Of a stretch of DNA of 64,000 nt, positions 1 to 45,455 are shown one piece after another. The notes below the pieces were generated by a model that saw only the letters and a program-made list of their open reading frames with translations, searched no databases and was not told the DNA's origin. The stretch is from an uncultured Candidatus Saccharibacteria bacterium. Its GTDB lineage: Bacteria; Patescibacteriota; Minisyncoccia; UBA6257; GWB1-50-10. How positions within the stretch are numbered: position 1 is the stretch's first letter; the number at the start of each line of letters is the position of its first letter. The stretch spans positions 18,607-82,606 of the forward strand of contig CAYISA010000001.1 of assembly GCA_964365955.1 (NCBI GenBank), in the 5' to 3' direction. The position numbers were made by a program, and so were the translations under genes.

Positions 1-1533
1 TGAATCTAAATCGGAAATCGCGGAAAATTCCACAAGCGTCCCTTCCGCAAATCGCGCGCCGCATACCGCACCGCACTCAATGCCCGTAGGACCCGAGATA
101 ATTTTCCCGGAACCCGTTCCAGTTTTAGAAACGGAAACAGAAAACATTTTTCCCGTTGTCGAGGCGACAACGGTCGAAGTTGCAACAAAAGAATTCTCTC
201 TTCTCGGCGTCCCCATGATCCCACTCGTGCCACTCCCTACATGCGTGTGCCAACTAAAATCCGTGCCCCGCTCCATCGTGCGGTAATCGGGAGATGCATT
301 TCCGGCGGGCCACGTTTTCCCACTCCCCCCATCCGCACTTACCACGTCTACCAACCGACACGTGGAATCAAAAAGTCTTAAAATTTCGTCACTATTTTTC
401 AATCCTCCCATGTAAATAAAATCGGCTGGGATGGTCGGAACCGTTTCATCGTCCGTTCGTTCCAATAGATAGAATCCGTTTGCGGAAAGAACGGAACCCT
501 CCGGAAACACCGTGCGTAAATTTCCGCTTTTGTTCACTGCCTGCCAACCGGCTAATGCTACGGCAGTCCCGCCGGGATTTTTAAGCTCAAACCATTCGTG
601 CGATGTTTTGTCGTTTGCAGTTCCCGCCCACGCCACTTCATTGATCAAAACAGAACGCGTGGGAATCCCTGTGGCATCAGCAGGGCAAAAAGCGACGTTT
701 TCAATAAGGGCAACCGCAGGCGCGAGAGAAGAAGATGTCGATATCGCCATTCTATTCGTGCTCGTGCGCGGGGTGGCATCTGCCACAACCGTATTTTCTC
801 TTCGCGGCGTTCCTCCTTCCACACGCGACGTATGCCACATAAGCATCGTGAGATTTCTTTCCATGGTCTGCTTGGTATCGTTTTCTCCCGCCGACCATGA
901 CGGATCCGCCGCAATTGCATCTTCCACCCCACAGTCTGCGTTCAAAAGGCGGAGTGTTTGATCACTATTTCTGATCGCGCCTGAAAATTCAGCGTCCACG
1001 GACATTCCCGGAAACATTGTTCCTTTTCGCGCAAGAAGAAAAAACGCGCCGGGGAGAATGCGTGTGCCACGCGGAATTGTTAAATTCAATTTTCCGTCCT
1101 CGTCCAAAACACTCCAGCCGGAAATATCGACCGGAACACCGGAACGATTCGCAAGTTCAATCCACTCGTGCCGCGCAGACGTGCGCGTACCCATCCAAGC
1201 AATTTCGCTAAAAATAACGGAATGGTTTTTCACAATATCTCCGGCTTCTGTGTCACACGAACGGTTCTGCGGTTGCGCAGAAAATGTCGGCGCGCTATTT
1301 GTTTGCCCGACAGGTTCGGTTTCTCTAAGTGCAATTTCTTCCTGCGTGCTTTTCGGGTAAAATGTTTCCTTTGCAACACGCCCAAGTGTTGCAAACGGTT
1401 CTGCAATAGACGCAAGCAATGAGGAATCAGGATTACTTCGCGCCAAACTCCCCATGCCCATACCCGCAACAAACACTAGTCCTATCCCAAGCGCAATTAC
1501 AGCCACTTTGTATTTTACAAAAAAACCGCCCAT
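1..1533 (-). CDS. Exported/membrane-anchored protein with two lamin-tail-domain (LTD)-like modules; partial, 3' end lies beyond the left edge
   Basis: Absent from the ORF track because it has no stop in the window. My translation of the minus strand from ATG 1533-1531 reads MGGFFVKYKVAVIALGIGLVFVAG (TM helix) and stays open to position 1. Two LTD-like motifs are present: VIFSEIAWMGT..HEWIELANRSG..DISGWSV and VLINEVAWAGT..HEWFELKNPGG..LAGWQAV. The listed ORFs at 6-1472 are other-frame shadows of this gene. Confidence 0.65.
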   Translation of the reverse strand, partial: MGGFFVKYKVAVIALGIGLVFVAGMGMGSLARSNPDSSLLASIAEPFATLGRVAKETFYPKSTQEEIALRETEPVGQTNSAPTFSAQPQNRSCDTEAGDIVKNHSVIFSEIAWMGTRTSARHEWIELANRSGVPVDISGWSVLDEDGKLNLTIPRGTRILPGAFFLLARKGTMFPGMSVDAEFSGAIRNSDQTLRLLNADCGVEDAIAADPSWSAGENDTKQTMERNLTMLMWHTSRVEGGTPRRENTVVADATPRTSTNRMAISTSSSLAPAVALIENVAFCPADATGIPTRSVLINEVAWAGTANDKTSHEWFELKNPGGTAVALAGWQAVNKSGNLRTVFPEGSVLSANGFYLLERTDDETVPTIPADFIYMGGLKNSDEILRLFDSTCRLVDVVSADGGSGKTWPAGNASPDYRTMERGTDFSWHTHVGSGTSGIMGTPRRENSFVATSTVVASTTGKMFSVSVSKTGTGSGKIISGPTGIECGAVCGARFAEGTLVEFSAISDLDS

Positions 1534-1604: not shown

Positions 1605-3188
1605 TTACCTGCAAAGAACGTAAACAGTCGGAGCGTAACAAAAATAACGGATTGAGGTTAAAGTCTGTGCTGTGCAATCGAACAAGGGGGCGGTAGTCGC
1701 AAACCAACCTTCCGAATATCCAGTGTGCGACGCGAGAGTTTGATTAAAGACAGTCGCAAGACCCTGCTTCAAAAGTGACGGCTTCTCGGTAACCCATCCC
1801 GTGCAAGTCGATAAACCAACCGTATGCGACGTGCCGCAGGTCGCGAACGTGTCCGTATCGGCAGTAATAATATGACAACCACCTCCCACCGGGATAGTCG
1901 GATTCCAAGCTATAATAGTCGGCTTAATCGTGGCCGGGTTAAACATGCTCGAACTGTTGTATACTTTTGTTTCTAGACCGCTACAATCATAATCAAACGA
2001 TCCGTCACCGCGCTGGGTATAAAAATAACTTGTTTGTCCTGGTTTTGCGTTATAGTTTGAGTCATAACAATCCATAACGGGCTGGCGCGTATCAAGGGTA
2101 GCCCCGACAGGCGCGGCCGACATACGAACATGCCCTACCCATATTGGAGAAGAACTAGTATATCGCGCCAATAATGTGGAAGCGGGAGGATACCTATCAT
2201 TATCTATGTCGTCATAATAAACATACTTTTTCACGATGTTCCCCCCGCCGGAACTTTTAAGGATCGTGATAGCACTTCCTGCCTGTTTAGCCCCCGTTCC
2301 TCCCGCAAGGAGTGTGATGTTATTTCCCGGGGCATAAGCAAAAGTGGCGCCCCCCGATATGGTAATGGACTTGGCATTTAAATCCAGATCAAATCCATCA
2401 ATGCCATCAACATCAGAAACACTAGAAAGAAAACACGGTCCTGTTAGACTTCGTGGTGTTGTTGTTGTTGCGATCGTACAAACCGGGTCTGACCATGCAA
2501 GTTCCAAGTGATTCTTCCGCGCAAGCGCGTCTATCGCAAAAAATGTCGTGCGGTAGGTGGTTTTATGCGTATCATGCGCGACCCAGGATCCCTCATACAC
2601 ATACTGGCGCAAGGACTGCGCTTTTGCGGTTTCAAAAAGCGACGTCCGCTCCTCACTCGTATGTTTTGCCATCCATTCTTCTTTCGCCACCAACACGCCT
2701 TTTTCGTCAAAAAAGACGGGTTGGTCAAACTGATCCGTAACACTAACCGCTCCGGCAGATGCTAATACAAGCGGAACTTTATCTTTTCCTTTGTCGTGCC
2801 CCACTTCTGCATAGACTTCCGTAAGCGCGGCGGTGTCATTTATCACGATTCGCATCCTCTGCGTGTCGCCCGGATGAACATCTAAAGGATCTAACACGCC
2901 CGACACAAACTGCGGGTACACGTCCGCGCTGGTGATGGAGTCAAACTCCGCCTTTCCCTTCGGAATCCGCCAGCGTTCCCCTTTTATATTTACAAATTCA
3001 GCCAAAGCCACCGATGCGATGGGAGAAGATACTTCGCTCGTAGCAACGGGGGGGAGTACGGACATGGCAACTTCCCCGACGTTAAACTGGGCCTTAATAA
3101 GAAATAGAATCCCCAAAAATAGGCCGAGTAACAGACCTAAAAAAACGAGGTTCTTTTTGTTATCCATCATGGATTCATTATACACCAC
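1605..3188 (-). CDS. Hypothetical exported protein with N-terminal membrane anchor and Cys-rich C-terminal half
   Basis: 527-aa ORF. The N-terminus NKKNLVFLGLLLGLFLGILFLI looks like a signal anchor. No family recognised. Confidence 0.6.
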   Translation of the reverse strand: MVYNESMMDNKKNLVFLGLLLGLFLGILFLIKAQFNVGEVAMSVLPPVATSEVSSPIASVALAEFVNIKGERWRIPKGKAEFDSITSADVYPQFVSGVLDPLDVHPGDTQRMRIVINDTAALTEVYAEVGHDKGKDKVPLVLASAGAVSVTDQFDQPVFFDEKGVLVAKEEWMAKHTSEERTSLFETAKAQSLRQYVYEGSWVAHDTHKTTYRTTFFAIDALARKNHLELAWSDPVCTIATTTTPRSLTGPCFLSSVSDVDGIDGFDLDLNAKSITISGGATFAYAPGNNITLLAGGTGAKQAGSAITILKSSGGGNIVKKYVYYDDIDNDRYPPASTLLARYTSSSPIWVGHVRMSAAPVGATLDTRQPVMDCYDSNYNAKPGQTSYFYTQRGDGSFDYDCSGLETKVYNSSSMFNPATIKPTIIAWNPTIPVGGGCHIITADTDTFATCGTSHTVGLSTCTGWVTEKPSLLKQGLATVFNQTLASHTGYSEGWFATTAPLFDCTAQTLTSIRYFCYAPTVYVLCR

Positions 3189-3213: not shown

Positions 3214-3242
3214 TTGCATTTTAAGAATAGGCGTGATATAAT
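3214..3242 (+). promoter_or_regulatory. Sigma70-like promoter (TTGCAT-17 nt-TATAAT)
   Basis: TTGCAT at 3214-3219, a 17-nt spacer, and TATAAT at 3237-3242, about 35 nt upstream of the 3276 start. Confidence 0.4.
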
Positions 3243-3275
3243 ACAAACAGTAAACTAAACAACTGAATAATTGGA

Positions 3276-4724
3276 ATGAAAGGACTTGTTATGAAAAATC
3301 TATTGGTGGTATTGCTTATACTCTTCATCGCTGTCTCTATCGGCTTTTCCCAGTCCGTTACAAAAATCTGGGAGAAAAAACTGGAAGGGGACCCTAGTTC
3401 ACAGCCACGTGCAATTGTGGCGGACACAAATAACTGTGTCTATCTCGCGGATGAGTACTACAAAGATCAAAAATATTTGCGTATTCGCAAATTTTCACCC
3501 GCGGGTGCGAAACTCTGGGAATGGATTGACACAGCATCACCGGGCGCTAGAATCTACCCAAAATCCATTGCTTACTCCGTCAAAGATAACTCTATTATTG
3601 CCCCCACGACTACCGCGCTCAATAAATTAAGCGCGGATGGAGTACTGTTGTGGAAAATGCCTTATGCGGGAGGGGTTGCTTCCGTCTTCGGGGACACCAT
3701 CGTTACGCTTACACCAGGGAATATAAGCGGAACGGTTTCGTTTTTTGATCTGAATGGAAACTTTGTCCGAAGCTTTCAAACAGGAATGCTCACACTTGGA
3801 TTTATTGGAATTTCCTTCAGAGACAATTTCATTTGGGTCTCTGCAAATAGTCCGGACGGGATTATCTCAAACACAGCGGCGTATCTTGCTAAATTCACAA
3901 CCAGTGGAATATTGCTCTGGAGGTGGAACGCACCGGACGTAAGCATGTCATTCTCTGATGTAGATCAAGATGGGAACGCATACTTCGCACTTACACAATT
4001 TCGCATACTTCCGGAGCCCTTATGGGTGGAACTGGCGTACCGCCTTGTCGCATTGAATGCGGTAGGAGATGTTGTATGGGATCGCGAGTGGATTGAACAT
4101 CCGCGAGGGTTTGCGAATCAGTATAATTATACGCAAAGTATTGCCGTATCCAGCCATGATATTATCAACCGCCAAGTAGTTCTTTTAGGAATTACGGAGC
4201 GGAGTGATAGTTTGGCCGATGGTAACGCGCAATACTACGCGCGATGTTTCAAAGCAACAAACGGAGATTCGCTCTGGAAGTTACGCGGAGATTATGATCC
4301 TGCGTATAAAGTGTCCCAGTATGAAGCTGGCACATTCACTCCCGACGGAGATCTGGTAATCGCAGGCGATGGATTTCCTCCATCACTTGCAGTCACGTCT
4401 TACCTCCAGAAGTTCCATTCAACGACAACAGAGGTTCGTGAATTTCCAAATCTTCTTCCTATTGGGTTTTCCATTTCCCAAAACTATCCGAATCCCTTTA
4501 ACCCGACGACACACATAAGATTCGCGGTTCCGCGCGCAACACACGTGAAACTCGCGGTCTATGATATCTTGGGTCGAGAGGTAGAAATTTTGTGGGATGG
4601 AGAAAAATCTCCCGCAGTCTACGAGGCGGATTGGGACGCGACAAATTCTTCGAGCGGAATCTATTTTGCGCGGTTTACTACCCCTTCGGGAATAGAAACG
4701 CGCAAAATGATGCTACTGAAATAA
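3276..4724 (+). CDS. Secreted beta-propeller-like protein with T9SS-type C-terminal sorting domain
   Basis: Signal peptide MKNLLVVLLILFIAVSIGFS. The C-terminus NYPNPFNPTTHIRFAVP..VKLAVYDILGREV..SGIYFARF..RKMMLLK matches the Por/T9SS CTD pattern. Confidence 0.8.
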   Translation: MKGLVMKNLLVVLLILFIAVSIGFSQSVTKIWEKKLEGDPSSQPRAIVADTNNCVYLADEYYKDQKYLRIRKFSPAGAKLWEWIDTASPGARIYPKSIAYSVKDNSIIAPTTTALNKLSADGVLLWKMPYAGGVASVFGDTIVTLTPGNISGTVSFFDLNGNFVRSFQTGMLTLGFIGISFRDNFIWVSANSPDGIISNTAAYLAKFTTSGILLWRWNAPDVSMSFSDVDQDGNAYFALTQFRILPEPLWVELAYRLVALNAVGDVVWDREWIEHPRGFANQYNYTQSIAVSSHDIINRQVVLLGITERSDSLADGNAQYYARCFKATNGDSLWKLRGDYDPAYKVSQYEAGTFTPDGDLVIAGDGFPPSLAVTSYLQKFHSTTTEVREFPNLLPIGFSISQNYPNPFNPTTHIRFAVPRATHVKLAVYDILGREVEILWDGEKSPAVYEADWDATNSSSGIYFARFTTPSGIETRKMMLLK

Positions 4725-4735: not shown

Positions 4736-4766
4736 AAACCCCTGCGGTATGCGGGGGTTTTTATTT
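4736..4766. terminator. Bidirectional rho-independent terminator
   Basis: 10-bp stem (AAACCCCTGC / GCGGGGGTTT) with a 5-nt loop and flanking A/T runs, placed between convergent genes. Confidence 0.6.
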
Positions 4767-7700
4767 ATCGTATAAGTTTATCGAGATTAAACCCTTCCAC
4801 GTCGTCGTTGCGCCGATTCCCGAGCGTTTCCGAATCAAACCGCGGAGCGGTCAGGCGATAACTTACTTCCCCTTCGGAAGAACCGTAGATTATGACGCGC
4901 ATCGTTACCGCATCTTTTTCGTACCATACGTTGCCGTCAAACGCGGGCGTTAAAAGGACCGTCATGCCATCAAAATGATTCGCCAAGTTTGTAACTTTCG
5001 AAAAGAGCCATAAATCCGACGCCTCTTCCGCATTTTTAAAATCCACGCTCGCGCTATAACGCCCGTCTTGTTTGGCCAAGCGCGCAACGCCCGACGTTTC
5101 TTCTTTCTGGCCCGTCATTGCGGCGCCATAGGTGGCGTAACGCTTTCCGCCGATCGTGTAAACCGGGTCCCATGTTCCGACGCTGATTTTGCCGGTACCG
5201 CCACCAAATACCGCTACCAACCCGGTGGTGGTTGTGCCAACACTAAGCAGAGCGGAAGGAGTAGTGGTTCCTATGCCAACCTTCCCGGCAAAATAAGACG
5301 CTGCGGTTGCAAGAGAATAGATTGCATAATTTCCGGCACCTGCACTAGGAGATCCTATTCGAATTCCTTGGTTAGATGTGTTGCCAAACGCGGAAAAAAT
5401 ACCTCCCACATTCGTTCCGCCAGCCCCCGTCCATGTGGATTCCCCCGAAAGACCCACCGCAAGACGCCCAGCGGCTGCTCCTCCACTATGAACCGCGCGA
5501 ACAGCGTACGTTTCCGCCGTGGACGCTTGGGTTCCTTCACTAAAATATGCCATAGCGAATCCTTGTGTTGAGTTTGTGCTCCCTACGGTAAACCGATAGC
5601 TGGAGGGTGATACTCCAATGCCGACATTCGCCCCGCGCACAAAAATAGCATCGGATGCCAGGTTTTGAATCACCAATGTTCCATCCAACCCCACACGGAA
5701 TTTTGTGGAGGTGGCGGTAGCCGTTCGGGAAAGACGCAGAACTTCATCGGTCGGAGAGGTACTCAAAACTTCCAACTTGGAACTGGGAGCTGCCACACCG
5801 ATACCCATATTACCGCTCGTATCAAAAATGGCGCGCAGGGTGGAGCTTGTATAAAACGCGATAGGAACGGTGATGCCGCCGCCTCGGATCTGCAGTTGCC
5901 CGGCCTGTCCATCCATACTTCCGCTACCCCCCATGGTTAGATGAGTTTGCCCCGAGCTATCCGATCCAATTGAAACTATGCCGCCGGTTACATTGTCGTC
6001 TACCGTAAAAATCCCCGTTCCGGGATTCCCCACAACCGCCAACTTCGCGGTTCCAGGAGTTGTTGCGCCCACAGCAACATTGTAAGAAGCAGATGTCGGA
6101 TTAAGATTATTCCCTGAAAGTGACCAAAAATTGGTCCCCCCAGTAGGAGCCGTCCATGTTGCAAGACCATTTGCGTCGGATGTTAATACCTTCCCCGACC
6201 CTTGCGTACCATCTACAATTTGAATCGCGTCGCCAAAAAATGCGGAACGCACCAAACCGCCGATCGGTACGGTGGTTGTGACATAAATCCCGTAGGATGT
6301 TGCCCCCGCGTTTGTTGCACGTCCTGGAGTTATAAAAAGCCCGTAAGAAACGGGAGTGCCGCTTCCCGAAAAAATTGCTTCTCCGCCCGCTACTTTCAGC
6401 CCATAGGAGTTTAGTCCTGTCGCACTATTTGAATTTGTTACGCCCAGTACTCCAGAGGTTCCGGTAATGTTGGAACTGATGGATGATGCGCCGCTTAAAA
6501 TTGTAATAGCGCCTGAAGAAATTGTTCCGATGTTTGAAAGATTGCGGCTGGTATCCATAAACTGCGTGCCGCTCATCTGAAGCGGTCCCGTAGCATTTAC
6601 GTTTCCTCCGTTTATTTGAAGTAAAGCGGTGCCCGTTACATTAGTTGCGTTTTGCCAAAAAGTAAAATAATTCGCTATTCCGGAACCTCCGATTCCGCTC
6701 GGCCACGAGTTCCGACATACTTCCCCGATACAGACGTTTGCCGCAAACGTGGAAGTGGCGCTCACGGTTAAATCTCCGGTCACATCAAGCGCCGTTGCGG
6801 GAGCGACCGCCGAGCCAATACGAACATCAGATGCAAAACGAACATCGGCGGGATAGAAAAGCACCGTGGGACCGCTTGCGGTTCCATTCGGATAAAACTG
6901 GATTGAACCGCTCTGTGTGGCGCCTCCGCTGAAACCCATGTAGAAGCGATCGCCTGCCACATCATGTTTCTGCACCCATTGTCCCAATGTCGGACTTGAG
7001 GTCGCAATCCAAAACGCACCGGTCACCCGCGCGTTTCCCGCTACATCAAGCGGATAAGCGGGATTTGTGTTCCCGTTGCCTGCCCCTATAAAACCATTTT
7101 TTAGCGTGAGGAGATCCGCACCCGCTACATTTACAACAAACGCGCTATCCGTTCCCTCTTTAAAAACCACAGGATTTGCCGCTGTGGAACGAAAAAGTCC
7201 GAACAGTGGATCAGCCCCACCCGCAACGGAAAACGGATAGAGCGGTGTTGTGGTTCCGAGTCCAATATTACTTCCACTGACTGCAAGCGGGGACGTTCCA
7301 GAAAGCGCTGTTGCACTTGTCCAGTATGGAATATAATTTGCGGTTCCGGCACCTGTCACCGTGCCATTGCCTTTATTGTTAAACGTTGTCCAATCCGTGA
7401 AAGAAAGATAACCATTCGTCGTTCCATTTGCTTGGCTGATGGAAATATTCGGAGTGGCGCCTCCGCTACTGGTGAGCGGGAGCGAAGCGGTCACACTTGT
7501 GACGCCTACTGTATCAATATCATTCGAACACACAATCGTTCCGGTAGAACTAAGAGAAGAAATTTTTTGTGTTCCGCCGCAGGTGCCGCCCAACATATTC
7601 AGCATAAGCGTACCCGAGGTCGTAATCGGTCCTCCACTCAAACCCGAACCGCTTCCAACACTTGTCACTGACCCGGCAGGCCACGAGTTCCGACATACTT

Positions 7701-8553
7701 CCCCGATACAGACGTTTGCCGCAAACGTGGAAGTGGCGCTCACGGTTAAATCTCCGGTCACATCAAGCGCCGTTGCGGGAGCGACCGCCGAGCCAATACG
7801 AACATCAGATGCAAAACGAACATCGGCGGGATAGAAAAGCACCGTGGGACCGCTTGCGGTTCCATTCGGATAAAACTGGATTGAACCGCTCTGTGTGGCG
7901 CCTCCGCTGAAACCCATGTAGAAGCGATCGCCTGCCACATCATGTTTCTGCACCCATTGTCCCAATGTCGGACTTGAGGTCGCAATCCAAAACGCACCGG
8001 TCACCCGCGCGTTTCCCGCTACATCAAGCGGATAAGCGGGAGCAACTGTGCCAATGCCGACATTATCCCGCACATAAGCACTTCCATAAACTGAAAATGG
8101 CTGTGGCAAACCCGTTTTAGAAGACGTCGCGACACCAAGCGACGCGGGAAATGCAAAATTGCCTCCACCTTGCAAAGATCCGAATACACCGGAGCTGACA
8201 TTATCGGCAGAAAGCGCGCCGGAGAACGCACCTAAAAATGAGTTTGCTTGTACGTTCCCGTTCACTTGTAATGCCTGCGCGGGAGCCACGGTACCAATGC
8301 CAACATTTCCATTCGGGAAGAAAAGAATATGCTGGTTGGATCCTCCGGAAGTTTGGAACAGGAGCTGGGATTGAGAAGAATACACCGTGCTCGTCCCAAT
8401 CTGTAACGCGCGCGTAGACGATGCAAAAAGAATTCCGCAGTTGCCAGTAGGCGGATTCCCACATGGGCCTTGGAACGTTTGTGCGTCTGCAACACCCACA
8501 AATAGTGCGATGGCGGCGATAGAAAAAAGAATGAGGGTTGGAAATTTATTCAT
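4765..8553 (-). CDS. Large secreted surface protein (1262 aa) with tail-fibre-like NVGIGT..P..L.V.G repeats
   Basis: Signal peptide MNKFPTLILFSIAAIALFVGVADA. Gly/Ser/Thr-rich, with the motif GIGT(V/T)xPxxxLxVxG recurring at least 7 times. Contains an exact 121-aa internal duplication. Confidence 0.85.
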   Translation of the reverse strand: MNKFPTLILFSIAAIALFVGVADAQTFQGPCGNPPTGNCGILFASSTRALQIGTSTVYSSQSQLLFQTSGGSNQHILFFPNGNVGIGTVAPAQALQVNGNVQANSFLGAFSGALSADNVSSGVFGSLQGGGNFAFPASLGVATSSKTGLPQPFSVYGSAYVRDNVGIGTVAPAYPLDVAGNARVTGAFWIATSSPTLGQWVQKHDVAGDRFYMGFSGGATQSGSIQFYPNGTASGPTVLFYPADVRFASDVRIGSAVAPATALDVTGDLTVSATSTFAANVCIGEVCRNSWPAGSVTSVGSGSGLSGGPITTSGTLMLNMLGGTCGGTQKISSLSSTGTIVCSNDIDTVGVTSVTASLPLTSSGGATPNISISQANGTTNGYLSFTDWTTFNNKGNGTVTGAGTANYIPYWTSATALSGTSPLAVSGSNIGLGTTTPLYPFSVAGGADPLFGLFRSTAANPVVFKEGTDSAFVVNVAGADLLTLKNGFIGAGNGNTNPAYPLDVAGNARVTGAFWIATSSPTLGQWVQKHDVAGDRFYMGFSGGATQSGSIQFYPNGTASGPTVLFYPADVRFASDVRIGSAVAPATALDVTGDLTVSATSTFAANVCIGEVCRNSWPSGIGGSGIANYFTFWQNATNVTGTALLQINGGNVNATGPLQMSGTQFMDTSRNLSNIGTISSGAITILSGASSISSNITGTSGVLGVTNSNSATGLNSYGLKVAGGEAIFSGSGTPVSYGLFITPGRATNAGATSYGIYVTTTVPIGGLVRSAFFGDAIQIVDGTQGSGKVLTSDANGLATWTAPTGGTNFWSLSGNNLNPTSASYNVAVGATTPGTAKLAVVGNPGTGIFTVDDNVTGGIVSIGSDSSGQTHLTMGGSGSMDGQAGQLQIRGGGITVPIAFYTSSTLRAIFDTSGNMGIGVAAPSSKLEVLSTSPTDEVLRLSRTATATSTKFRVGLDGTLVIQNLASDAIFVRGANVGIGVSPSSYRFTVGSTNSTQGFAMAYFSEGTQASTAETYAVRAVHSGGAAAGRLAVGLSGESTWTGAGGTNVGGIFSAFGNTSNQGIRIGSPSAGAGNYAIYSLATAASYFAGKVGIGTTTPSALLSVGTTTTGLVAVFGGGTGKISVGTWDPVYTIGGKRYATYGAAMTGQKEETSGVARLAKQDGRYSASVDFKNAEEASDLWLFSKVTNLANHFDGMTVLLTPAFDGNVWYEKDAVTMRVIIYGSSEGEVSYRLTAPRFDSETLGNRRNDDVEGFNLDKLIR
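6701..7063. repeat. Intragenic direct repeat, copy 1 (363 bp)
   Basis: Identical by my reading to 7679-8041 (offset 978 bp). Shadow ORFs 6780-7019 and 7758-7997 translate identically. Confidence 0.9.
7679..8041. repeat. Intragenic direct repeat, copy 2 (363 bp)
   Basis: See copy 1. Identity breaks at 6700/7678 and at 7064/8042. Confidence 0.9.
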
Positions 8554-16694: not shown

Positions 16695-16815
16695 ACCCTT
16701 TTCAATCTATACTACCACACATAGAATTATCCACACATTCCTTTTCTATTCTCAAAGAATGGAGCTATACTAAATGCATCATTACAAGGTCGATTTAACT
16801 TTTCCTTTATTGATC

Positions 16816-17439
16816 ATGTTAAAAACACAAGAAAAGAGGGGGTTTACGCTTATTGAGCTGATTATTTCCATCGCGATTTTGGCAATTTTAGTCGCGGTTC
16901 TGGTAGTCGCAATCAACCCCGCTGAACAGCTGGCACGCTCCCGAGACGCAAAACGCGTTGCAGACCTTGATGCATTGAAATCTGCTTTAAACTTGTATCT
17001 TGCGACCGCCACGACAACCGTAAACTTGGATGGACAGGGAACCGCGAATACGCTCTGTTCCGGTGGAGGCGGGGCCGACACTATTTTCTTTAATAGCACA
17101 GCCGGAGCGACAACCAGCGGTGCATATGACGTGGGTCATACGTGGGTTGCGAAATCAGCAAGCTCGGGCCAGGCTATCGGAGCGTCGGGCTGGTTACCGG
17201 CACGTTTTGATTGGACGCCCGGAGGTTCTCCGATCTCCAACCTTCCGCTTGATCCAACAACTCCGGGAGGAGATTCCACCTATTTCTATTCCTATGCGTG
17301 TGAATCAACCAACAAACAATTTAAGTTGACCGCAAGACTCGAAAGCACTTATTTTGCGAGCGATCTGAACCTTGATGGAAATGACGGCGGAGCAACCTCC
17401 TCACTTTACGAAGTGGGAAGCAATCTTACGACGCTCTAA
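16816..17439 (+). CDS. Type IV pilin
   Basis: MLKTQEKRGFTLIELIISIAILAILVAVLV, a class III signal with FTLIEL. Start moved to the internal ATG at 16816. Confidence 0.8.
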   Translation: MLKTQEKRGFTLIELIISIAILAILVAVLVVAINPAEQLARSRDAKRVADLDALKSALNLYLATATTTVNLDGQGTANTLCSGGGGADTIFFNSTAGATTSGAYDVGHTWVAKSASSGQAIGASGWLPARFDWTPGGSPISNLPLDPTTPGGDSTYFYSYACESTNKQFKLTARLESTYFASDLNLDGNDGGATSSLYEVGSNLTTL

Positions 17440-17519
17440 CCATTTGGACGGCGTGTTTGTTCTGAAAAACCCCCACCTGTGGGGGTTTTTGTTTTCGTAA
17501 AATGCTAAAATAAACACAT

Positions 17520-19229
17520 ATGGCAATCACGCTCGGAAAGATAACAGATCTACTTGTAAAAGAGGGGGTGGTAAAAAAGGAAGAGGTTGCGACATTAGAA
17601 GAAGAAGCGAAACAGTTGGGCGCGACATTTTCGCGGTACTTAATCTCGCAGGGACGGCTTACCGAAAAACGGCTGAATGAAATCATCAGTACGTTTTTGA
17701 ATGTCCCTATTTTTGACATTAAGGAGCGAGCACTGAAGCCGGAATTTGTGGAACTGCTTCCGGAAGCGATCGCGCGCCAGCGTCAACTGCTTATTGTAGA
17801 CGCCGATCAGAAGAAAAAAACGTACTCGGTCGCGATGACGGACCCCACGGACATCGACACTCTTACCTTTCTTGCAGAATACCTGAACGGAACGATTGAC
17901 CCTTACCTCATTTCGTCCGAGGATCTGCGATTCGGGTTTCGTATTTACAAAAAAAAGTCCTCCGCCGAATTCCAAAAAATCATCAATGAGCGCATCAAAG
18001 AGCTCCGCACAACACTGAAGCGCGGTGCGGAAGGGAACATCCTCGAAAATGTTCCGCTGGTTCAACTTTTTGACGCGGTCATGGATTATGCGGCTATTTT
18101 GGATGCCTCGGATATTTATTTTCAGCCCGAAGAAGAACTCTTAAGAATCCGCTTCCGTGTGGATGGACTCTTGCGGGATATTTTTATAACGGATAAGGCG
18201 ATTAACGACGGAATTATTGCGCGCGCCAAGACACTTTCGGCACTGCGTATTGACGAACACGTGAAACCCCAGGACGGACGCTTCCGGTTCCGAACGAGCG
18301 ATACCGATCTGGATATCCGCGTTGCCATCATGCCGACATTTTTTGGCGAGAAACTGACACTCCGCCTTTTGGCGGGATCGCAATCGTTCCTCACCTTTGA
18401 AGAATTGGGTGTGAGCGATGTGATGGCTCAAAAACTCTATCAGACCGTCAAGCGCCCCTACGGAATGCTCTTGAGCGCCGGTCCTACCGGCTCCGGAAAG
18501 ACGACAACTATTTACAGTATTCTGACTCTTCTGAACCGACCCGAGGTTCATATCGCAACCATCGAAGATCCTATTGAATACATGATTCCGAACGTAAGCC
18601 AAACACAGGTGAATGTACAGGCAAATATTACGTTTGCGTCCGGGCTCCGCGCGCTCCTACGCCACAGTCCCGACGTTATTTTGATCGGTGAAACGCGCGA
18701 CGCGGAAACGGCCTCTATTTCAATTAATGCGGCGCTGACCGGCCATCTTTTGATTTCGAGCATCCACACCAATAATGCCCCGAGCGCGGTGGTGCGACTC
18801 CTGGACCTTGGCATTCCGTCTTTCCTTATAGCATCTACTTTGAACGCGGTGGTGGCACAACGCCTGGGAAGAAAAATCTGCCAGAACTGCATTGAGTCGT
18901 ATCCCACGCCTCCCAGCATCGCGAAACAGATACAAGAAGAGTTTGCGCGAGCGGGTAAAAAGAATCCGCCTCCCAAAAAACTCTACCGCGGAAAAGGATG
19001 CACAATCTGCGATAACACGGGGTACAAGGGTCGCACTGGTATTTTCGAAATTTTGGTCGTGAGCGAGAAAATTCGCGACATCATCGCAGGAACCCATTTC
19101 ACGCTCGACTCGCTTTCGGAAATGGCACGCGCGGAAGGAATGACCACGATGTTTGAAGACGGACTCGAAAAAGTGGAGCGCGGCGTTACCACTATTGAAG
19201 AACTATTCCGCATCATGAGCGCGGAATAA
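17520..19229 (+). CDS. pilB: Type IV pilus assembly ATPase PilB/GspE family
   Basis: Walker A GPTGSGKTT, Asp box, His box, and a C-terminal CxxC..CxxC tetracysteine motif. Confidence 0.9.
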   Translation: MAITLGKITDLLVKEGVVKKEEVATLEEEAKQLGATFSRYLISQGRLTEKRLNEIISTFLNVPIFDIKERALKPEFVELLPEAIARQRQLLIVDADQKKKTYSVAMTDPTDIDTLTFLAEYLNGTIDPYLISSEDLRFGFRIYKKKSSAEFQKIINERIKELRTTLKRGAEGNILENVPLVQLFDAVMDYAAILDASDIYFQPEEELLRIRFRVDGLLRDIFITDKAINDGIIARAKTLSALRIDEHVKPQDGRFRFRTSDTDLDIRVAIMPTFFGEKLTLRLLAGSQSFLTFEELGVSDVMAQKLYQTVKRPYGMLLSAGPTGSGKTTTIYSILTLLNRPEVHIATIEDPIEYMIPNVSQTQVNVQANITFASGLRALLRHSPDVILIGETRDAETASISINAALTGHLLISSIHTNNAPSAVVRLLDLGIPSFLIASTLNAVVAQRLGRKICQNCIESYPTPPSIAKQIQEEFARAGKKNPPPKKLYRGKGCTICDNTGYKGRTGIFEILVVSEKIRDIIAGTHFTLDSLSEMARAEGMTTMFEDGLEKVERGVTTIEELFRIMSAE

Positions 19230-19235
19230 TAACTC

Positions 19236-20459
19236 ATGGCACGCTTTTCTTACGTCGCTCAAAATTCTGAAAATGAAATTAGCAAGGGAGTGATTGAGGC
19301 TCCCACGCACAGTGAAGCTGTACGTGTTTTGGTACGCAAGGGCCTTTCCCCTATTAAACTGGAGGTGTTTAAGGACGCGGGTGAAAAAAATAAAACGCTC
19401 CCCATTACTATTTCATTCCGGAAAAATCTGACGCTCTTTGACCAAATCAATATCCTGCGCCACCTAGGAACAATCCTGAACACCGGCACTGATCTTCTCT
19501 CGGGTCTCGATATCATCGCGAAAGACGCTATCAACCCATTGGTACAGAAAATACTTTACGATGTAAAAGAGCGCGTGGGACGCGGTGAGCGTTTTTCTGA
19601 CGCGATCGAAAAATGGAAGAGCCAGTTCAGCCCCATTTTTGTAAGTCTTGTACGCGCCGGAGAATCATCTGGAACGCTTCCAAAAACGCTGATTAGCTAC
19701 GCGCAAGAACTCCGAAAAGACTATTCGTTTTTCAGAAAACTTCGGAGCGCGGTAACTTATCCGGTTATTCTGGTGGTCGCGGTTGTTGCAATGATTCTTA
19801 TTCTTATCTCTATTGTTGTGCCGCGTTTAAAACAGCTTTTTTCCACTACGCGCGCCGCACCTCCCTTTTATACGAAATTTTTTATCGCTGTATCGGATTT
19901 TTGGCTCGCTCATCTATGGACGATCCTGGGAATTTTGGCAATTTGCGCGGTCGCGTTGATGATTGCGTTTCGTAAAAAAACGCTTCGTGAGAAATTAATG
20001 GAAATTCTTTGGTATTTCCCGGTCCTAAAAAAAATAAACAGGAATCTTATTCTTTCCCGATTCACTAAAACGATTGCGAACCTGATTGATGCGGGATTTT
20101 CTCTAAAAGAAGCTCTCCACACAACCGAAGAAGTAGTGGGACCGAAACACAGAAAAGCGCTCAAAGAAATTGCGGAAGCAAAACTAGCAAAAGGTGTGGA
20201 ATTTTCTGAGGCACTAAAATCCTACGAAGATCTTTTTCCGCGTATTTTAGTGAGCGTGATAGCAACCGGCGAAAAAAGTGGACAGCTTTCTTCCGTGCTT
20301 CTCCAGATGGGCGAGTTCTATGAGGAAGAAGTTTTGTATTCATTAGAACTCTTCTTGACGCTCATTGAACCATTGCTTCTTGTCTTTGTGGGTCTGGTTG
20401 TGGGGCTAATGGCTGCATCTATTATTTCTCCGATTTACAGCTTAATCGGCCACTTCTAA
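19236..20459 (+). CDS. pilC: Type IV pilus platform protein PilC/GspF family
   Basis: 407 aa with duplicated GspF-type domains and 3 TM helices. Confidence 0.88.
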   Translation: MARFSYVAQNSENEISKGVIEAPTHSEAVRVLVRKGLSPIKLEVFKDAGEKNKTLPITISFRKNLTLFDQINILRHLGTILNTGTDLLSGLDIIAKDAINPLVQKILYDVKERVGRGERFSDAIEKWKSQFSPIFVSLVRAGESSGTLPKTLISYAQELRKDYSFFRKLRSAVTYPVILVVAVVAMILILISIVVPRLKQLFSTTRAAPPFYTKFFIAVSDFWLAHLWTILGILAICAVALMIAFRKKTLREKLMEILWYFPVLKKINRNLILSRFTKTIANLIDAGFSLKEALHTTEEVVGPKHRKALKEIAEAKLAKGVEFSEALKSYEDLFPRILVSVIATGEKSGQLSSVLLQMGEFYEEEVLYSLELFLTLIEPLLLVFVGLVVGLMAASIISPIYSLIGHF

Positions 20460-20461
20460 CG

Positions 20462-20932: not shown

Positions 20933-20933
20933 A

Positions 20934-21137
20934 TTAATCCTGAACTTTTTCAATTTGGAAGGCGGGGAGCTGATGTGCGGGCGCTTTCGGCACCCGAAAC
21001 GCCATGAGTCCCTCCCGCACGACAAACTGCACAAGGAACGCCGCACATACCACAAGAATAATCACGTACACAAGTGCCGCGGCTCCTAAATAAGATTCGA
21101 AATTTTTTGATTTATAAAAACGTTGCAACATAACCAT
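20934..21137 (-). CDS. Small single-pass membrane protein in the pilus operon
   Basis: ATG at 21137 overlaps the upstream TAA (TAATG). TM helix GAAALVYVIILVVCAAFLVQFVV. Tightly packed between pilO-like and pilin genes. Confidence 0.45.
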   Translation of the reverse strand: MVMLQRFYKSKNFESYLGAAALVYVIILVVCAAFLVQFVVREGLMAFRVPKAPAHQLPAFQIEKVQD

Positions 21138-21724: not shown

Positions 21725-21730
21725 AGGCGA

Positions 21731-23206: not shown

Positions 23207-23208
23207 GT

Positions 23209-29756: not shown

Positions 29757-32516
29757 ATGAAACGCTTTGTTGTTTTTCTTGCTGGTTTGTTTTTCCTTAC
29801 ATCCCTTGTCGCAACCGGCCAATCGTTTGTTCCGACGCAAGGACCGTACGGAAAAGATGTGTTTTCGATTGCTCGCGGAACTGGCGGCCGCATATTTGCA
29901 GGAGCGGAAGATAATCTGTACCGTTTCCGCGATACCGCATGGGCCAATGTTCTTGTTTACAATGACCTCCCGGTTATCTCCAACACCAAACCGATGGCAA
30001 GTTTGAACGGAGAAGTTATTGTTTATGCAAGTTCTCGGTTCATGTCGTATCGAACTTTATATGTGTCAAAAGATGGCGGTGCCACATGGAATACAGAATT
30101 CGCGAGCGGATTCCCGGACGGTCCCCCCCCTTTGACGTGCCTTGCGTTTAACATAGAAGGGCAACTATTTACAGGGACACTAAGACGAGCATTTGCCGAT
30201 ACTGCCGTTGGTGGCGGCATCTGGCGATCACTTGATACTGCGAAGACATGGGAACGAGTCCGTGATACTACAAGCGGTCTAGGGCTTGATACTATTTCCG
30301 TCTATTCACTTACGGTTCGTGGAAACACGATCTTTGTGGGTGCGCAAAGCGGGATCTTTCTCTCAACCGATGCCGGCGCTACCTGGACGCATCATTTTTC
30401 TGATGTGTTTCCGGGGCATATTTATTCCGTTGCGATTGATAGTTCCGGGGACCTCTTCTTGAGCACGGATTATAATTACGGCAACGGAGAAGATATCTAC
30501 CGTTCCACCGACAACGGGACAACCTGGACGGGAATGGGACTAGGCGCTCACACGACCGTGCTTGCCGTGCATCCAAATGGCACTGTTTTTGGCGGTTCGC
30601 GTGAAAACCTCGGCGTTCTTCGATCCACAAACAATGGCATCACATGGGACGCCTCAAATCCGGCTATCGGGAACACCGCCGCAGGTGTACCAAAAATTGC
30701 ATCCATCGAATTCGGCGAGGACGGCAGTGTCTATGTAGGCGCTTTGCTCGATGGAGTATTCCGCTCAACGGATAATGGAACGACATGGAAACAGATAGGA
30801 ATTCCGGCGCAAACCTCTATGGTGGCGATTCCGGACACAGTTGCTCCGCCTCCTCTGATAAGCAAGCTTTTTACGGAATCGGTCTATCTTGATTCCGTTC
30901 CAAGCGCACTTCTTGCAGTCGCAAAAGGGTATCCCTATCAATCTGTCGATGGTGTTCGCTGGGAACGGTTTGAACTTCCTGGTTTCTCTGGATTTGTACA
31001 AACCGCAATCGTTTCACCAGGAAATTCATTTATGGCAACTCTTGGTGGAGGCATTTTCCGGTCACTGGATGGCGGATACACATGGGAACGATTAATATCT
31101 TTCCCAGCGCCAACTCAAAGAATTTATGCCATGGCAATGAGTCATGGGAATAAATTATTTGCAAGCGGTGATTTTGCTGAAGGATTGTATCGTTCTAGTG
31201 ATTTTGGAAATACGTGGGAACAGGTTTATCCATTAGTTGGATTAATTACTTCACTTGCTACGTCCCCACTCAATGATTCTTTAATCTTCGCTGGGGCGGA
31301 TGGAGTTCATCGAAGTACCGATGGTGGAACTTCGTGGGAACTGACTGGCCTTTCGGGCATCGGAATCACATCGCTCTCGGTTGACGCGGGTGGCATGGTC
31401 TACGCCGGAAATCAGGATGGCATCTATCGCTCAACCAACAACGGTACTACCTGGGAACCCCCAAGTGCGGAGTCGAGAGCACTGCGCGGAGTTCAAGGTG
31501 TAGGACCGACGAACGTGCTCTCGATTGCAAGCAAACACGTAAGTGTCTTTGCGGGAACCGAAACGTCGGGACTATATCTTTCCACGGATCAGGGAACTGG
31601 ATGGGAACCGATTAATGCGGGGCTCACCAGTTCCAAAATCCCTTCCGTTACGATCACGCGACGCGGTTATGTTTTTGCCGCAACTGACAAAGGCGTTTTC
31701 CGTTCTCTGTCACCGATTGCGGTAGCAGAGTACACATACGCGCTAACGGACGGATGGAATATGGTTTCACTTCCCGTGCGTCCAGACGATTCCCGGAAGA
31801 CATCGGTCTTCCCGTCGGCACAGTCCAAAGCGTTTGCCTATGACGGCGGTTATAACACCGAAGACGTTATGCAACGTGGCTCCGGCTATTGGGTAAAACA
31901 TCCAAGCGCAGGCATTGCTATATTAGGCACTCCGGTGGAACGTGAAACGGTGAGCGTAAGACAGGGCTGGAACATGATCGGCTCAATTACATCGCCTGTT
32001 CCCGTTGCAACCATCGGAAGCATCCCCGGTGGACTCGTCGTCTCGAATTTCTATGGGTGGAAGGGTGTCTCTCAAGTCTACGACACAGCAGACACCATCG
32101 GCCCCGGAAAAGCGTACTGGGTTAGAGCGTCGGCAAACGGCAAGTTGATACTTGCAAAAACGCCAGCAGCACAACCCTTCGCAATCGTGATTGTGCCCAC
32201 AGACGAAGCTCCGCCGCCACCTCCGGGATATAACGGAAAAGATATTCCAAAGAGCTTCATGCTTTATGGAAACTATCCAAATCCTTGGAACCCAACAACG
32301 GTGATCAAATTTGATCTCCCAGAAAATGCATCCGTGACTTTAAAAGTCTGGAATGTGTTGGGACAGGAAGTTCTGAAGGTGATGGACCATGTTCCGTATG
32401 AAGCGGGTCGCTATGAAATCACACTTCATTCCGACGAGCTGCCGAGTGGCATCTATTTCTACACGCTTCAGGCGGGAAATCATCTTGCAACCAAAAAGAT
32501 GATCCTTCTGAAGTAA
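29757..32516 (+). CDS. BNR/Asp-box repeat beta-propeller protein with T9SS-type C-terminal sorting domain
   Basis: Signal peptide MKRFVVFLAGLFFLTSLVATG. At least 10 S-x-D-x-G-x-T-W boxes (SKDGGATW, STDAGATW, STDNGTTW, STDGGTSW, STNNGTTW, STDQGTGW and others). C-terminus NYPNPWNPTTVIKFDLP..VTLKVWNVLGQEV..SGIYFYTLQAG..KKMILLK. Confidence 0.85.
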   Translation: MKRFVVFLAGLFFLTSLVATGQSFVPTQGPYGKDVFSIARGTGGRIFAGAEDNLYRFRDTAWANVLVYNDLPVISNTKPMASLNGEVIVYASSRFMSYRTLYVSKDGGATWNTEFASGFPDGPPPLTCLAFNIEGQLFTGTLRRAFADTAVGGGIWRSLDTAKTWERVRDTTSGLGLDTISVYSLTVRGNTIFVGAQSGIFLSTDAGATWTHHFSDVFPGHIYSVAIDSSGDLFLSTDYNYGNGEDIYRSTDNGTTWTGMGLGAHTTVLAVHPNGTVFGGSRENLGVLRSTNNGITWDASNPAIGNTAAGVPKIASIEFGEDGSVYVGALLDGVFRSTDNGTTWKQIGIPAQTSMVAIPDTVAPPPLISKLFTESVYLDSVPSALLAVAKGYPYQSVDGVRWERFELPGFSGFVQTAIVSPGNSFMATLGGGIFRSLDGGYTWERLISFPAPTQRIYAMAMSHGNKLFASGDFAEGLYRSSDFGNTWEQVYPLVGLITSLATSPLNDSLIFAGADGVHRSTDGGTSWELTGLSGIGITSLSVDAGGMVYAGNQDGIYRSTNNGTTWEPPSAESRALRGVQGVGPTNVLSIASKHVSVFAGTETSGLYLSTDQGTGWEPINAGLTSSKIPSVTITRRGYVFAATDKGVFRSLSPIAVAEYTYALTDGWNMVSLPVRPDDSRKTSVFPSAQSKAFAYDGGYNTEDVMQRGSGYWVKHPSAGIAILGTPVERETVSVRQGWNMIGSITSPVPVATIGSIPGGLVVSNFYGWKGVSQVYDTADTIGPGKAYWVRASANGKLILAKTPAAQPFAIVIVPTDEAPPPPPGYNGKDIPKSFMLYGNYPNPWNPTTVIKFDLPENASVTLKVWNVLGQEVLKVMDHVPYEAGRYEITLHSDELPSGIYFYTLQAGNHLATKKMILLK

Positions 32517-32528
32517 GTGTTCGGATTC

Positions 32529-32562: not shown

Positions 32563-32563
32563 T

Positions 32564-32591: not shown

Positions 32592-32622
32592 GCCTCGGCA
32601 ACTTGCCCGCCCACCATTCTTG

Positions 32623-45435: not shown

Positions 45436-45455
45436 CGGGAGAAATCATATGCGTA

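Follow-up and report, generated by a model that had tools for sequence, protein, structure and literature searches.

A beta-propeller protein with a T9SS type A C-terminal domain, encoded in a Patescibacteria genome with no T9SS genes in the DNA examined

In the 64-kb stretch of DNA analysed here (the window), an ORF of 482 amino acids was identified at positions 3276-4724 of the plus strand. As an earlier note on this DNA had described, it is wedged between minus-strand genes (1605-3188 and 4765-8553). Its product is a beta-propeller protein ending in a T9SS-type C-terminal domain (CTD). The genes and signals of the locus, and a second CTD gene further along the window, are as follows:

1..1533, minus strand: membrane-anchored Lamin-tail-domain (LTD) protein (PF00932, 94 bits), cut by the window edge and 719 aa in full
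1605..3188, minus strand: divergent partner gene, '527 family', probable real start ATG 3170 (521 aa)
3177..3182, minus strand: candidate -10 box (TATAAT) of the 527 gene, 6 nt upstream of ATG 3170
3214..3242, plus strand: candidate promoter of the CTD gene, with TTGCAT at 3214-3219, a 17-nt spacer and the extended -10 TGATATAAT at 3234-3242 (TATAAT at 3237-3242)
3280..3284, plus strand: Shine-Dalgarno sequence AAGGA, 6 nt 5' of ATG 3291
3291..4724, plus strand: CDS of the CTD beta-propeller protein, 477 aa (annotated alternative start 3276, 482 aa; GenBank MEK7465491.1)
4736..4760, plus strand: intrinsic terminator, a hairpin of 11 pairs (6 G-C) and then a T run
4765..8553, minus strand: 1262-aa secreted protein, convergent with the CTD gene and part of a fast-evolving surface-protein island
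29757..32516, plus strand: second CTD protein, 919 aa, a BNR/Sortilin-type propeller with a type A CTD (TIGR04183, 39.8 bits; PF15902/PF02012)

The more likely start codon of the CTD gene is ATG 3291 rather than 3276, as it is served by the ribosome binding site AAGGA at 3280-3284 and corresponds to the start of an orthologue of 74% identity; residue numbers for the parts of the protein nevertheless follow the 482-aa numbering. The sequence GAAAGGA is aligned in all four orthologous upstream regions. The promoter proposed in the earlier note, TTGCAT-17-TATAAT, is present, but its description as near-consensus does not hold for the -35 box, which agrees with TTGACA at three of six positions; for this reason the consensus scan called no promoter at 3214-3242. 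The candidate is supported by its conservation, the pattern TTG...N17...TGnTATAAT being kept upstream of the CTD gene in four orthologous loci. The terminator that the same note had described was also found, with its 11 pairs and T run, and is placed between the convergent CTD and 1262-aa genes.

The CTD protein consists of a signal peptide, a seven-bladed propeller, a linker and a bona fide T9SS type A CTD:

3291..3350, plus strand: Sec-type signal peptide, MKNLLVVLLILFIAVSIGFS with cleavage before QS, recognised by inspection (hydrophobic h-region, small-residue cleavage motif)
3357..4421, plus strand: seven-bladed beta-propeller passenger of the SBBP or 'delta-60' repeat type (aa 28-382)
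4422..4469, plus strand: flexible linker between passenger and CTD (aa 383-398), with pLDDT <50 at residues 385-396
4470..4721, plus strand: T9SS type A C-terminal domain (aa 399-482), a predicted 7-stranded beta-sandwich

All orthologues possess an equivalent N-terminus ending in [SA]Q, and AF2 places a helix at residues 3-21. The AF2 model of the protein (pLDDT 84.3) gives the passenger 28 strands, which fits seven blades, and the passenger repeats follow the consensus DxxGNxYVxG...KYxxxGxxxW. With the whole model, Foldseek retrieved nothing from the PDB but beta-propellers of a generic kind (CylK, YncE, clathrin, WD40), as the CTD was swamped by the propeller. A Pfam scan of the protein gave no match to PF06739 at E<=0.01, while its homologues carry PF06739/PF13360 at levels from faint to real; the modelled seven-bladed passenger works like an SBBP propeller.

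The CTD contains the motifs QNYPNPFNP, VYDILGREV, SGIYF and RKMMLLK, as well as G.Y and, with the near-C-terminal lysine, K(-6)...K(C-terminus). HMM searches matched TIGR04183 (43.9 bits, cut-off 23, E 1.7e-11) and PF18962 (34.2 bits, cut-off 27, E 3.1e-8), both over aa 404-479 and stopping three residues short of the stop codon; the sorting domain that had been recognised from the letters of the sequence is thus confirmed by profile. AF2 predicts seven strands across residues 399-480, with pLDDT of 82-91 for most of the domain. The CTD alone gave zero phmmer matches in the PDB; a profile of 21 CTD sequences found weak matches to solved CTDs (E 1.4e-3), its best relatives being the T9SS CTDs 8GLJ_D (the top match), 5UYT, 8GLK_D and RgpB 5HFS.

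The product of the divergent 527 gene is anchored in the membrane by an N-terminal TM segment and comprises a beta-rich region outside the cytoplasm and a C-terminus that is rich in Cys and resembles MopE; it has no match in Pfam or NCBIfam, and its AF2 model is poor (pLDDT 43.8, from an 8-sequence alignment). The -10 box of this gene, ATTATA when viewed on the plus strand, is invariant in the four-locus alignment, and the TATAAT-N6-ATG arrangement also occurs in the related loci L005, L006 and L030; this spacing suggests that the mRNA may be leaderless or near-leaderless. Wherever a 527 homologue is at least about 32% identical and upstream DNA is available, the gene lies head to head with a CTD gene. 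The full HMM search yielded 255 clusters of the family at E<=1e-30, spanning CPR and DPANN, and remote members have no CTD gene as neighbour. The idea that the 527 family is a dedicated CTD receptor was down-weighted on account of this breadth and of the remote members. Pfam analysis of 28 longer members revealed no informative fused domain, only one LRR and one MopE motif.

Downstream of the 527 gene lies the LTD gene, an order kept in L001, L005, L006 and L012. On the other side of the CTD gene, the 1262-aa protein showed no recognised domain in family scans and has syntenic homologues of 50-53% identity in L005 and L006. The neighbours in this surface island are TM or signal-peptide proteins with identities of 32-57%, as against 71-95% for RpoD/DnaG. 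Exactly two CTD ORFs were found in the window (3276-4724 and 29757-32516) with a CTD HMM built for this analysis; the second protein has a Patescibacteria orthologue (P0143), and its CTD is 40% identical to the focal one. Small CTD proteins were also seen near the locus in L009 and L012. The CTD propeller, the unannotated 527-family protein and the LTD protein form a newly defined conserved CPR surface module.

The source organism is a groundwater Patescibacteria (CPR) bacterium. All GenBank protein names on the contig read [Patescibacteria group bacterium], in agreement with the CPR-like context noted earlier, and the module's relatives bear the names Patescibacteria, Paceibacterota or 'Saccharibacteria'. 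The CTD gene is linked on this contig to AlaRS-RpoD-DnaG and CysRS-DnaB-RecR, and its linkage to CPR housekeeping genes recurs across assemblies and species.

The composition of the gene is ordinary for the window: GC3 is 0.455 against 0.511±0.060, codon-usage distance 0.85 against 0.80±0.20, and the tetranucleotide z-score lies between -0.3 and 0. Syntenic orthologues were found at 47% and 32% identity, and the divergent CTD/527 pair occurs in at least 13 lineages. The 56-aa proteins in the '90% cluster' of the focal protein are unrelated, a clustering artefact. In a tree built from the passenger only, the CPR proteins are monophyletic (100% bootstrap), apart from Ignavibacteria-like/FCB homologues; the nearest non-CPR homologues are SBBP-repeat T9SS cargo proteins of Ignavibacteria. 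Horizontal acquisition, one of the alternatives raised earlier, thus finds support as an old, single event, given the monophyletic CPR clade and the many lineages with the pair, whereas a recent transfer is ruled out by ordinary composition and synteny. An Ignavibacteria-like FCB bacterium appears to have passed the gene family to the CPR clade in a single ancient event; within the clade the family has been inherited with its divergent 527 partner and, in closer relatives, also with the LTD protein.

Among CPR proteins, conservation of the CTD is about double that of the passenger (54% versus 26% identity). For the window gene and its 74% orthologue, the only usable pair, dN/dS was 0.11 for the CTD and 0.14 for the passenger, at a dS of 1.0-1.4 that is near saturation. 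Per-column information content of CPR and FCB CTDs is correlated (r=0.85), with the same residue in 34 of 39 conserved columns, and no orthologue with a lost or truncated CTD was found. By these comparisons the CTD is under strong purifying selection. According to Lauber et al. 2024 (PMC10994853), what the conserved motifs of type A domains determine is the fold and not contacts with the translocon, so retention of the fold alone can explain much of this conservation. Of the conserved CTD residues, only the lysine near the C-terminus is considered important for transport and not for the fold (PMC10994853). K(-6) is present in 14 of 18 CPR-context CTDs, compared with 106 of 111 FCB CTDs, and K or R occupies the position in 17 of the 18; its retention is not obviously predicted by a purely structural role of the CTD.

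The earlier note had seen no T9SS components in the window, and this proved correct: the roughly 55 ORFs scanned gave no match to T9SS or outer-membrane families. No component of the T9SS core (PorK/L/M/N, SprA/Sov, PorV, PorU, PorZ) was detected in the window, in about 7 kb further upstream or in the annotated flanks of related loci; Bam, Lpt, Lpx and TolC families were not detected in the approximately 70 kb examined here or in the flanks of more than ten related loci, nor OmpH in the DNA examined of the focal genome. The searches covered about 70 kb of this genome and 10-20 kb per relative. Both type IV pilus clusters consist of pilM-N-O followed by pilB/T/C and lack a secretin, which diderms require. 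To our knowledge, no CPR cell imaged to date has an outer membrane. Indirectly, the Patescibacteria label, the lack of outer-membrane families within the DNA examined and the secretin-less pili speak against the outer membrane that functional T9SS cargo would need. The T9SS has been reported only from the FCB superphylum (PMC11205867); literature searches for T9SS in Patescibacteria, CPR or Parcubacteria returned no relevant paper, and those by Pfam/TIGRFAM accession nothing on CPR.

These observations support the core reading of a T9SS-type sorting-domain protein in a CPR genome, with none of the T9SS in sight. In this bacterium the CTD probably has a different job. The reading that we favour, with a probability of roughly 0.55, is that of an anciently acquired, fast-evolving, Sec-exported surface propeller whose CTD acts independently of any T9SS and serves to retain or dock the protein at the surface; the retention role is one that we infer. 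In a cell with no outer membrane, Sec export by itself would put the protein outside. The CTD would stay uncleaved, as a compact beta-sandwich holding or docking the propeller at the cell surface, where it may dock to the cell wall, to other copies of itself or to the 527/LTD surface proteins inherited with it. The propeller would serve as the part that varies and binds a ligand or a host. What connects the CTD with the 527 and LTD proteins is co-inheritance, and the 527 family is much wider than its pairing with the CTD. A repurposed domain had been listed among the alternatives, and it is the best one remaining, the CTD being constrained more strongly than its passenger.

An unlikely alternative is that the bacterium is an epibiont of a T9SS-bearing FCB host, its CTD propellers docking on the PorV shuttle or the PorU/PorZ complex of that host, so that the CTD is an adhesion or mimicry device instead of a self-secretion signal. 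The CPR CTDs are as close to an Ignavibacteria CTD (45-61%) as to one another and have the same consensus, the transport-associated lysine is mostly kept, and the passenger evolves very fast, like host-interaction proteins. At least two unrelated passengers bear the CTD in CPR genomes, with the small CTD proteins of L009 and L012 nearby. The Ignavibacteria homologue P0011 comes from the record Ignavibacteria_SJA_28_OLB5; its co-occurrence with the orthologue L009, whose sample label ANAN16-1 we take to denote an anammox-reactor metagenome, is anecdotal. However, the T9SS as it is known engages the CTD first within the cavity of the translocon (PMC10994853), the loading of an exogenous CTD onto PorV is hypothetical, and constraints that specify the fold cover most of the conservation by themselves (PMC10994853). 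It is doubtful that PorV/PorU/PorZ at the surface of an Ignavibacteria-like host serve as docking sites for CTD-tagged proteins of this Patescibacteria clade, or even link them covalently. If they did, CPR bacteria would attach to hosts by T9SS signal mimicry, and the identity of the host could be predicted from the genome.

The closest homologues outside CPR, SBBP-repeat T9SS cargo of Ignavibacteria, and the lack of a T9SS within the window would also suit a passive relic, in which the CTD of an FCB-derived gene is neutral baggage that is still undecayed. This is quite improbable, as the domain is twice as conserved as its passenger over at least 13 lineages, has a dN/dS of about 0.11, matches the FCB consensus in 34 of 39 conserved columns and is lost or truncated in no orthologue, in a gene whose composition is fully ameliorated. 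More improbable again is genuine T9SS cargo, in which case this subclade would, against expectation, possess an outer membrane and have its T9SS genes in another part of the genome. Every sequence feature of a functional type A CTD is kept, including the lysine, there are several CTD proteins per genome, and the genes may lie beyond the ~70 kb examined; against this stand the absence of T9SS, Bam, Lpt, Lpx and TolC genes in that DNA and in the flanks of more than ten related loci, two pilus clusters without the secretin needed by diderms, the imaged CPR cells without an outer membrane and the restriction of known T9SS to the FCB superphylum (PMC11205867). That an FCB gene came to lie on a CPR contig by chimeric assembly, the mis-assembly considered in the earlier note, or that the contig was mis-binned can be rejected with near certainty, since nothing beyond the taxonomic oddity speaks for it, while four records assembled independently of one another (ERZ1292635, ERZ1292640, ERR3858118, ERR3858135) show the gene with the same junction at either end, other species from unrelated samples share the arrangement, CPR housekeeping genes flank the gene on one contig, and composition shows no break.

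The T9SS and its CTD signal are regarded as a hallmark of the FCB superphylum and of transport across the outer membrane (PMC11205867, PMC10994853). Here a canonical type A CTD has long been kept by purifying selection in a lineage for which the DNA examined contained neither T9SS nor outer-membrane genes, in a phylum whose cells are believed to have no outer membrane. This points either to a second, T9SS-independent function of the CTD (surface retention, docking or oligomerisation) or to interaction with T9SS-bearing hosts, in which case the host range of CPR bacteria could, unusually, be approached from sequence. The automatic label 'T9SS type A sorting domain-containing protein' is no evidence of a T9SS in such genomes.

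Among known systems, the same architecture of signal peptide, SBBP-like propeller, linker and type A CTD is found in SBBP-propeller T9SS cargo of Ignavibacteria/FCB (P0011, P0023, P0037). Their CTDs are 45-61% identical to those of the CPR proteins and have the same motifs, whereas passenger identity is 15-23% by alignment and 24-29% by BLAST, and the CPR proteins form a separate clade with 100% bootstrap. The hosts also differ, that of the focal gene being a member of the Patescibacteria whose examined DNA contains neither T9SS nor outer-membrane genes, and so does the gene context: the focal CTD gene is locked to a partner gene of CPR/DPANN type, while the Ignavibacteria gene sits among many other CTD cargo genes.

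With the SprA-PorV substrates of F. johnsoniae (8GLJ, 8GLK) and the RgpB CTD of P. gingivalis (5HFS), the focal protein shares a predicted 7-stranded beta-sandwich at the C-terminus. These structurally characterised type A CTDs have the PNP..., GxY and K-x4-K motifs in common with it, but sequence similarity is weak (profile E 1.4e-3), CPR and Ignavibacteria CTDs together form a distinct sub-type, QNYPNPFNPxT, and the focal host has no translocon, PorV or PorU in the DNA examined. The FlgD Ig-like domain (PF13860), one of several related Ig-like sandwiches found at the C-terminus of secreted proteins, is a homologous-looking beta-sandwich, with weak profile matches to 7EH9, 7BHQ and 3OSV; it co-occurs in many homologues of the focal protein and models a structural or binding role that is independent of a T9SS, although the focal domain itself scores with TIGR04183/PF18962 and not with PF13860. 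The sorting signals of monoderms (LPXTG-sortase) provide an analogy in the way of working only, as a C-terminal element for surface retention after Sec export: the focal gene has no LPXTG-type motif, TM tail or nearby sortase, and in place of a short peptide its element is a folded domain of ~85 aa.

The protein under study is encoded on the plus strand between minus-strand genes (1605-3188 and 4765-8553), an arrangement that an earlier note on this DNA had described, and was said there to carry a T9SS-type C-terminal sorting domain (CTD).

3276-4724, plus strand: focal ORF with the CTD, 482 aa
1605-3188, minus strand: 527-family gene, product membrane-anchored, head-to-head with the CTD gene

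HMM searches bore this assignment out, residues 404-479 exceeding the curated cut-offs of both TIGR04183 (43.9 bits, cut-off 23, E 1.7e-11) and PF18962 (34.2 bits, cut-off 27, E 3.1e-8); the PGAP label was already T9SS type A sorting domain. The top PDB matches of a 21-sequence CTD profile were all solved T9SS CTDs (first F. johnsoniae 8GLJ_D, E 1.4e-3; then the ice-binding protein CTD 5UYT, 8GLK_D and RgpB 5HFS), with FlgD Ig-like structures as weaker matches ranked after them. An AlphaFold2 model with 20 homologues as input (pLDDT 84.3) has an N-terminal helix corresponding to the signal peptide recognised by inspection (MKNLLVVLLILFIAVSIGFS, ending before QS), 28 strands across residues 28-382, read as a putative 7-bladed propeller, a disordered linker (385-396) and a 7-stranded sandwich (399-480). 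In both its sequence and its predicted fold, the domain belongs to the T9SS type A CTD family. Foldseek analysis of the model against the PDB returned generic propellers only (CylK and YncE top), matches too general to suggest an activity for the passenger; the passenger repeat consensus is DxxGNxYVxG...KYxxxGxxxW, and homologues carry SBBP/PQQ-like repeat annotations.

Upstream alignment of orthologues, together with P0001 (an orthologue of 74% identity), indicates that the true start is probably ATG 3291 (477 aa) and not 3276. The promoter string that the earlier note had called near-consensus (TTGCAT-17-TATAAT, 3214-3242) is present, but the description was too generous, since the -35 element has only 3/6 consensus positions and a promoter consensus scan did not call it. 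The promoter is nevertheless supported by phylogenetic footprinting, as TTG...N17...TGnTATAAT and a ribosome-binding site (GAAAGGA) are conserved upstream of four orthologues. The intrinsic terminator was also as described (4736-4760; 11-bp stem, then a T run). The 527 gene looks leaderless: on the minus strand, TATAAT (3182-3177) is followed after 6 nt by ATG 3170 (window 3165-3182), and because TATAAT-N6-ATG recurs in three orthologous loci, this ATG, which gives the 521 aa listed in GenBank, is probably the real start, and not GTG 3188.

The composition of the focal gene is unremarkable: GC3 is 0.455 (window mean 0.511 +- 0.060), codon-usage distance 0.85 (0.80 +- 0.20 for window genes >300 aa) and tetranucleotide z-scores -0.3 to 0. 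This, with orthologues in the same gene arrangement, rules out recent transfer; the horizontal acquisition suggested earlier survives as one probable ancient event. Syntenic loci L005 and L006 in other genomes encode orthologues of 47% and 32% identity and share with the window the arrangement AlaRS-RpoD-DnaG-acyltransferase-LTD-'527'-CTD-giant protein (LTD, Lamin-tail-domain protein). RpoD is 85-95% and DnaG 71-84% identical among these three genomes, whereas the surface genes (LTD, 527, CTD propeller and a 1262-aa protein; L001, L005 and L006 compared with the window) are just 32-57% identical between genomes; the region is thus a vertically inherited surface island that evolves fast even among rather closely related genomes. 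The focal protein falls in a 90%-identity cluster whose representatives are unrelated 56-aa proteins (P0122-P0126), a database clustering artefact.

Partners of the CTD gene encode membrane-anchored proteins of ~460-530 aa with the conserved motifs DPLDVHxGDTQ, YEGxWVxHDTH and AWSDPxC and a C-terminal Cys-rich MopE-like motif. The 527 family has no match in Pfam or NCBIfam, its structure model is poor (pLDDT 44) and domains fused to its members were uninformative. The CTD/527 pair was found in the window and in related loci L005, L006, L007, L009, L012, L014, L015, L016, L017, L018 and L021, and probably also occurs in L030, whose upstream ORF on the minus strand is incomplete; L030 included, it spans at least 13 lineages, in MAGs named Patescibacteria, Paceibacterota and 'Saccharibacteria'. 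Remote 527 homologues (<=30% identity) in Jorgensenbacteria, Liptonbacteria, Parcubacteria LiPW_15 and DPANN archaea have no CTD neighbour. The recurrent pairing thus makes a robust marker of common ancestry, and the two proteins probably act together; the 527 family as a whole is not CTD-specific. A full HMM search at E<=1e-30 gave at least 255 50%-identity clusters of the family, whose Cys-rich, extracytoplasmic, membrane-anchored proteins are common to Patescibacteria and DPANN archaea (Pacearchaeota, Nanoarchaeota, Woesearchaeota). Small CTD proteins lie close to the module in L009 (299 aa) and L012 (215 aa).

Beyond CPR orthologues, the closest homologues of the focal protein are Ignavibacteria-type SBBP-repeat T9SS cargo (24-30% identity). 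Neighbour-joining was applied to just the passenger region of 11 CPR-context sequences (ten module loci and P0001), two of unknown context and 15 FCB-like sequences (FCB, the Bacteroidota/Ignavibacteria superphylum). The first 13 formed one clade with 100% bootstrap support, apart from the FCB-like sequences, which points to one ancient acquisition, presumably from FCB to CPR since the domain is overwhelmingly abundant in FCB. A CTD HMM built from 120 homologues flagged two ORFs of the 64 kb and no others, the focal ORF and the following:

29757-32516, plus strand: second CTD protein, 919 aa, BNR/Sortilin, F510_1955-like

It repeats the focal pattern: P0142 (39%) and P0143 (31%) are most closely related to it, and FCB proteins come next. 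P0143 (L031, GCA_030018585.1), which carries a Patescibacteria label and whose contig also encodes split transketolase, Rpe, RpiB and GAPDH, is a distant orthologue in another Patescibacteria MAG; CPR genomes therefore have at least two different established CTD cargo-type families.

Averaged over all pairs of ten CPR orthologues, identity is 54% for the CTD and 26% for the passenger. CPR CTDs are 45-61% identical to one Ignavibacteria CTD, equal to their closeness to each other; per-column information content of 13 CPR and 111 FCB-type CTDs agrees (r=0.85), with the same residue in 34/39 CPR-conserved columns. dN/dS between the window and the 74% orthologue (CTD 0.11, passenger 0.14) is approximate because dS (1.0-1.4) is near saturation. 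No orthologue of the focal protein has lost the CTD. Identity, information content, dN/dS and universal retention argue that the CTD is still functional and under selection. According to Lauber et al. 2024 (PMC10994853), the type A motifs that are conserved determine the fold and do not touch the translocon, so fold maintenance can account for most of this conservation. A possible exception is the near-C-terminal lysine, important for transport (PMC10994853); in CPR-context CTDs it is K in 14/18 and K/R in 17/18, which a purely structural role would not readily account for.

A Sec signal peptide, propeller, linker and CTD under selection are stably inherited together on a CPR chromosome. If the cell has no outer membrane, Sec export alone would place the protein outside, so the CTD could not be an outer-membrane translocation signal. 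It may persist as a compact C-terminal sandwich through which the variable propeller is retained, docked or oligomerised at the cell surface; the 527 and LTD proteins, inherited along with it, are possible partners. This T9SS-independent role is the most economical reading (probability about 0.55). The CPR CTD might instead dock onto proteins that handle CTDs on the surface of a T9SS-bearing host, which we consider unlikely. That the CTD is a neutral relic is more doubtful still, the selection data counting against it.

The CPR-like context recognised earlier was upheld. In GenBank the focal protein is MEK7465491.1, annotated 'T9SS type A sorting domain-containing protein [Patescibacteria group bacterium]'; the entries for three other proteins from this contig, CysRS, DnaB and RecG, name the organism in the same way, and window content fits a CPR genome: housekeeping genes (CysRS, DnaB, RecR, L21, RecG, PheST, LigA, GatCA, CCA-adding enzyme), LTD proteins, giant proteins without recognised domain, two type IV pilus clusters and a diversity-generating retroelement (DGR).

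16774-24095: type IV pilus cluster 1 (PilB, PilC, PilT, PilM, prepilin peptidase, several N-methyl pilins; set given for both clusters)
52660-63999: type IV pilus cluster 2 (same set)
44080-45144, minus strand: DGR reverse transcriptase
45452-45574: DGR template repeat (TR)
45913-46035: DGR variable repeat (VR) 1, 3' end of minus-strand ORF 45905-46615
46840-46962: DGR variable repeat 2, 3' end of minus-strand ORF 46832-47746

The DGR spans 44080-47746, nearly every position at which TR and VR differ is an adenine in the TR, and both target ORFs have outlying codon usage (GC3 0.70 and 0.68). The 182-aa ORF at 32517-33065 is probably not a gene, since tRNA-Ala (32622-32693) and tRNA-Pro (32954-33026) overlap it on the opposite strand. 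A 1855-aa protein without recognised domain (24085-29652) adjoins pilus cluster 1. In both clusters, pilM-N-O is followed directly by pilB/T/C, and neither contains a PilQ-type secretin. As the earlier note had remarked of T9SS components in the window, no T9SS or outer-membrane family matched in a scan of ~55 ORFs, and the annotation of the flanks of related loci lists none. Judged from this DNA, a T9SS and outer membrane hidden elsewhere in the genome are improbable. Exact-sequence matching found the focal gene in groundwater metagenomes from Hainich (well H43, 0.2 um fraction). That it is an artefact is scarcely credible: the mis-assembly proposed earlier is ruled out by four records from independent assemblies (ERZ1292635, ERZ1292640, ERR3858118, ERR3858135), all of which have this gene with identical neighbours to either side.

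Full-text literature searches turned up no paper in which CTD proteins of Patescibacteria/CPR are discussed, and according to reviews T9SS is restricted to the FCB superphylum or Bacteroidota (PMC11205867; PMC10994853). The occurrence of a CTD protein in CPR is solid, reproducible and somewhat surprising for T9SS and CPR specialists; its function is inferred. As neither T9SS nor outer-membrane genes were found in the DNA available here, the focal protein is not classed with functional T9SS cargo, whose hosts possess both a T9SS and an outer membrane.
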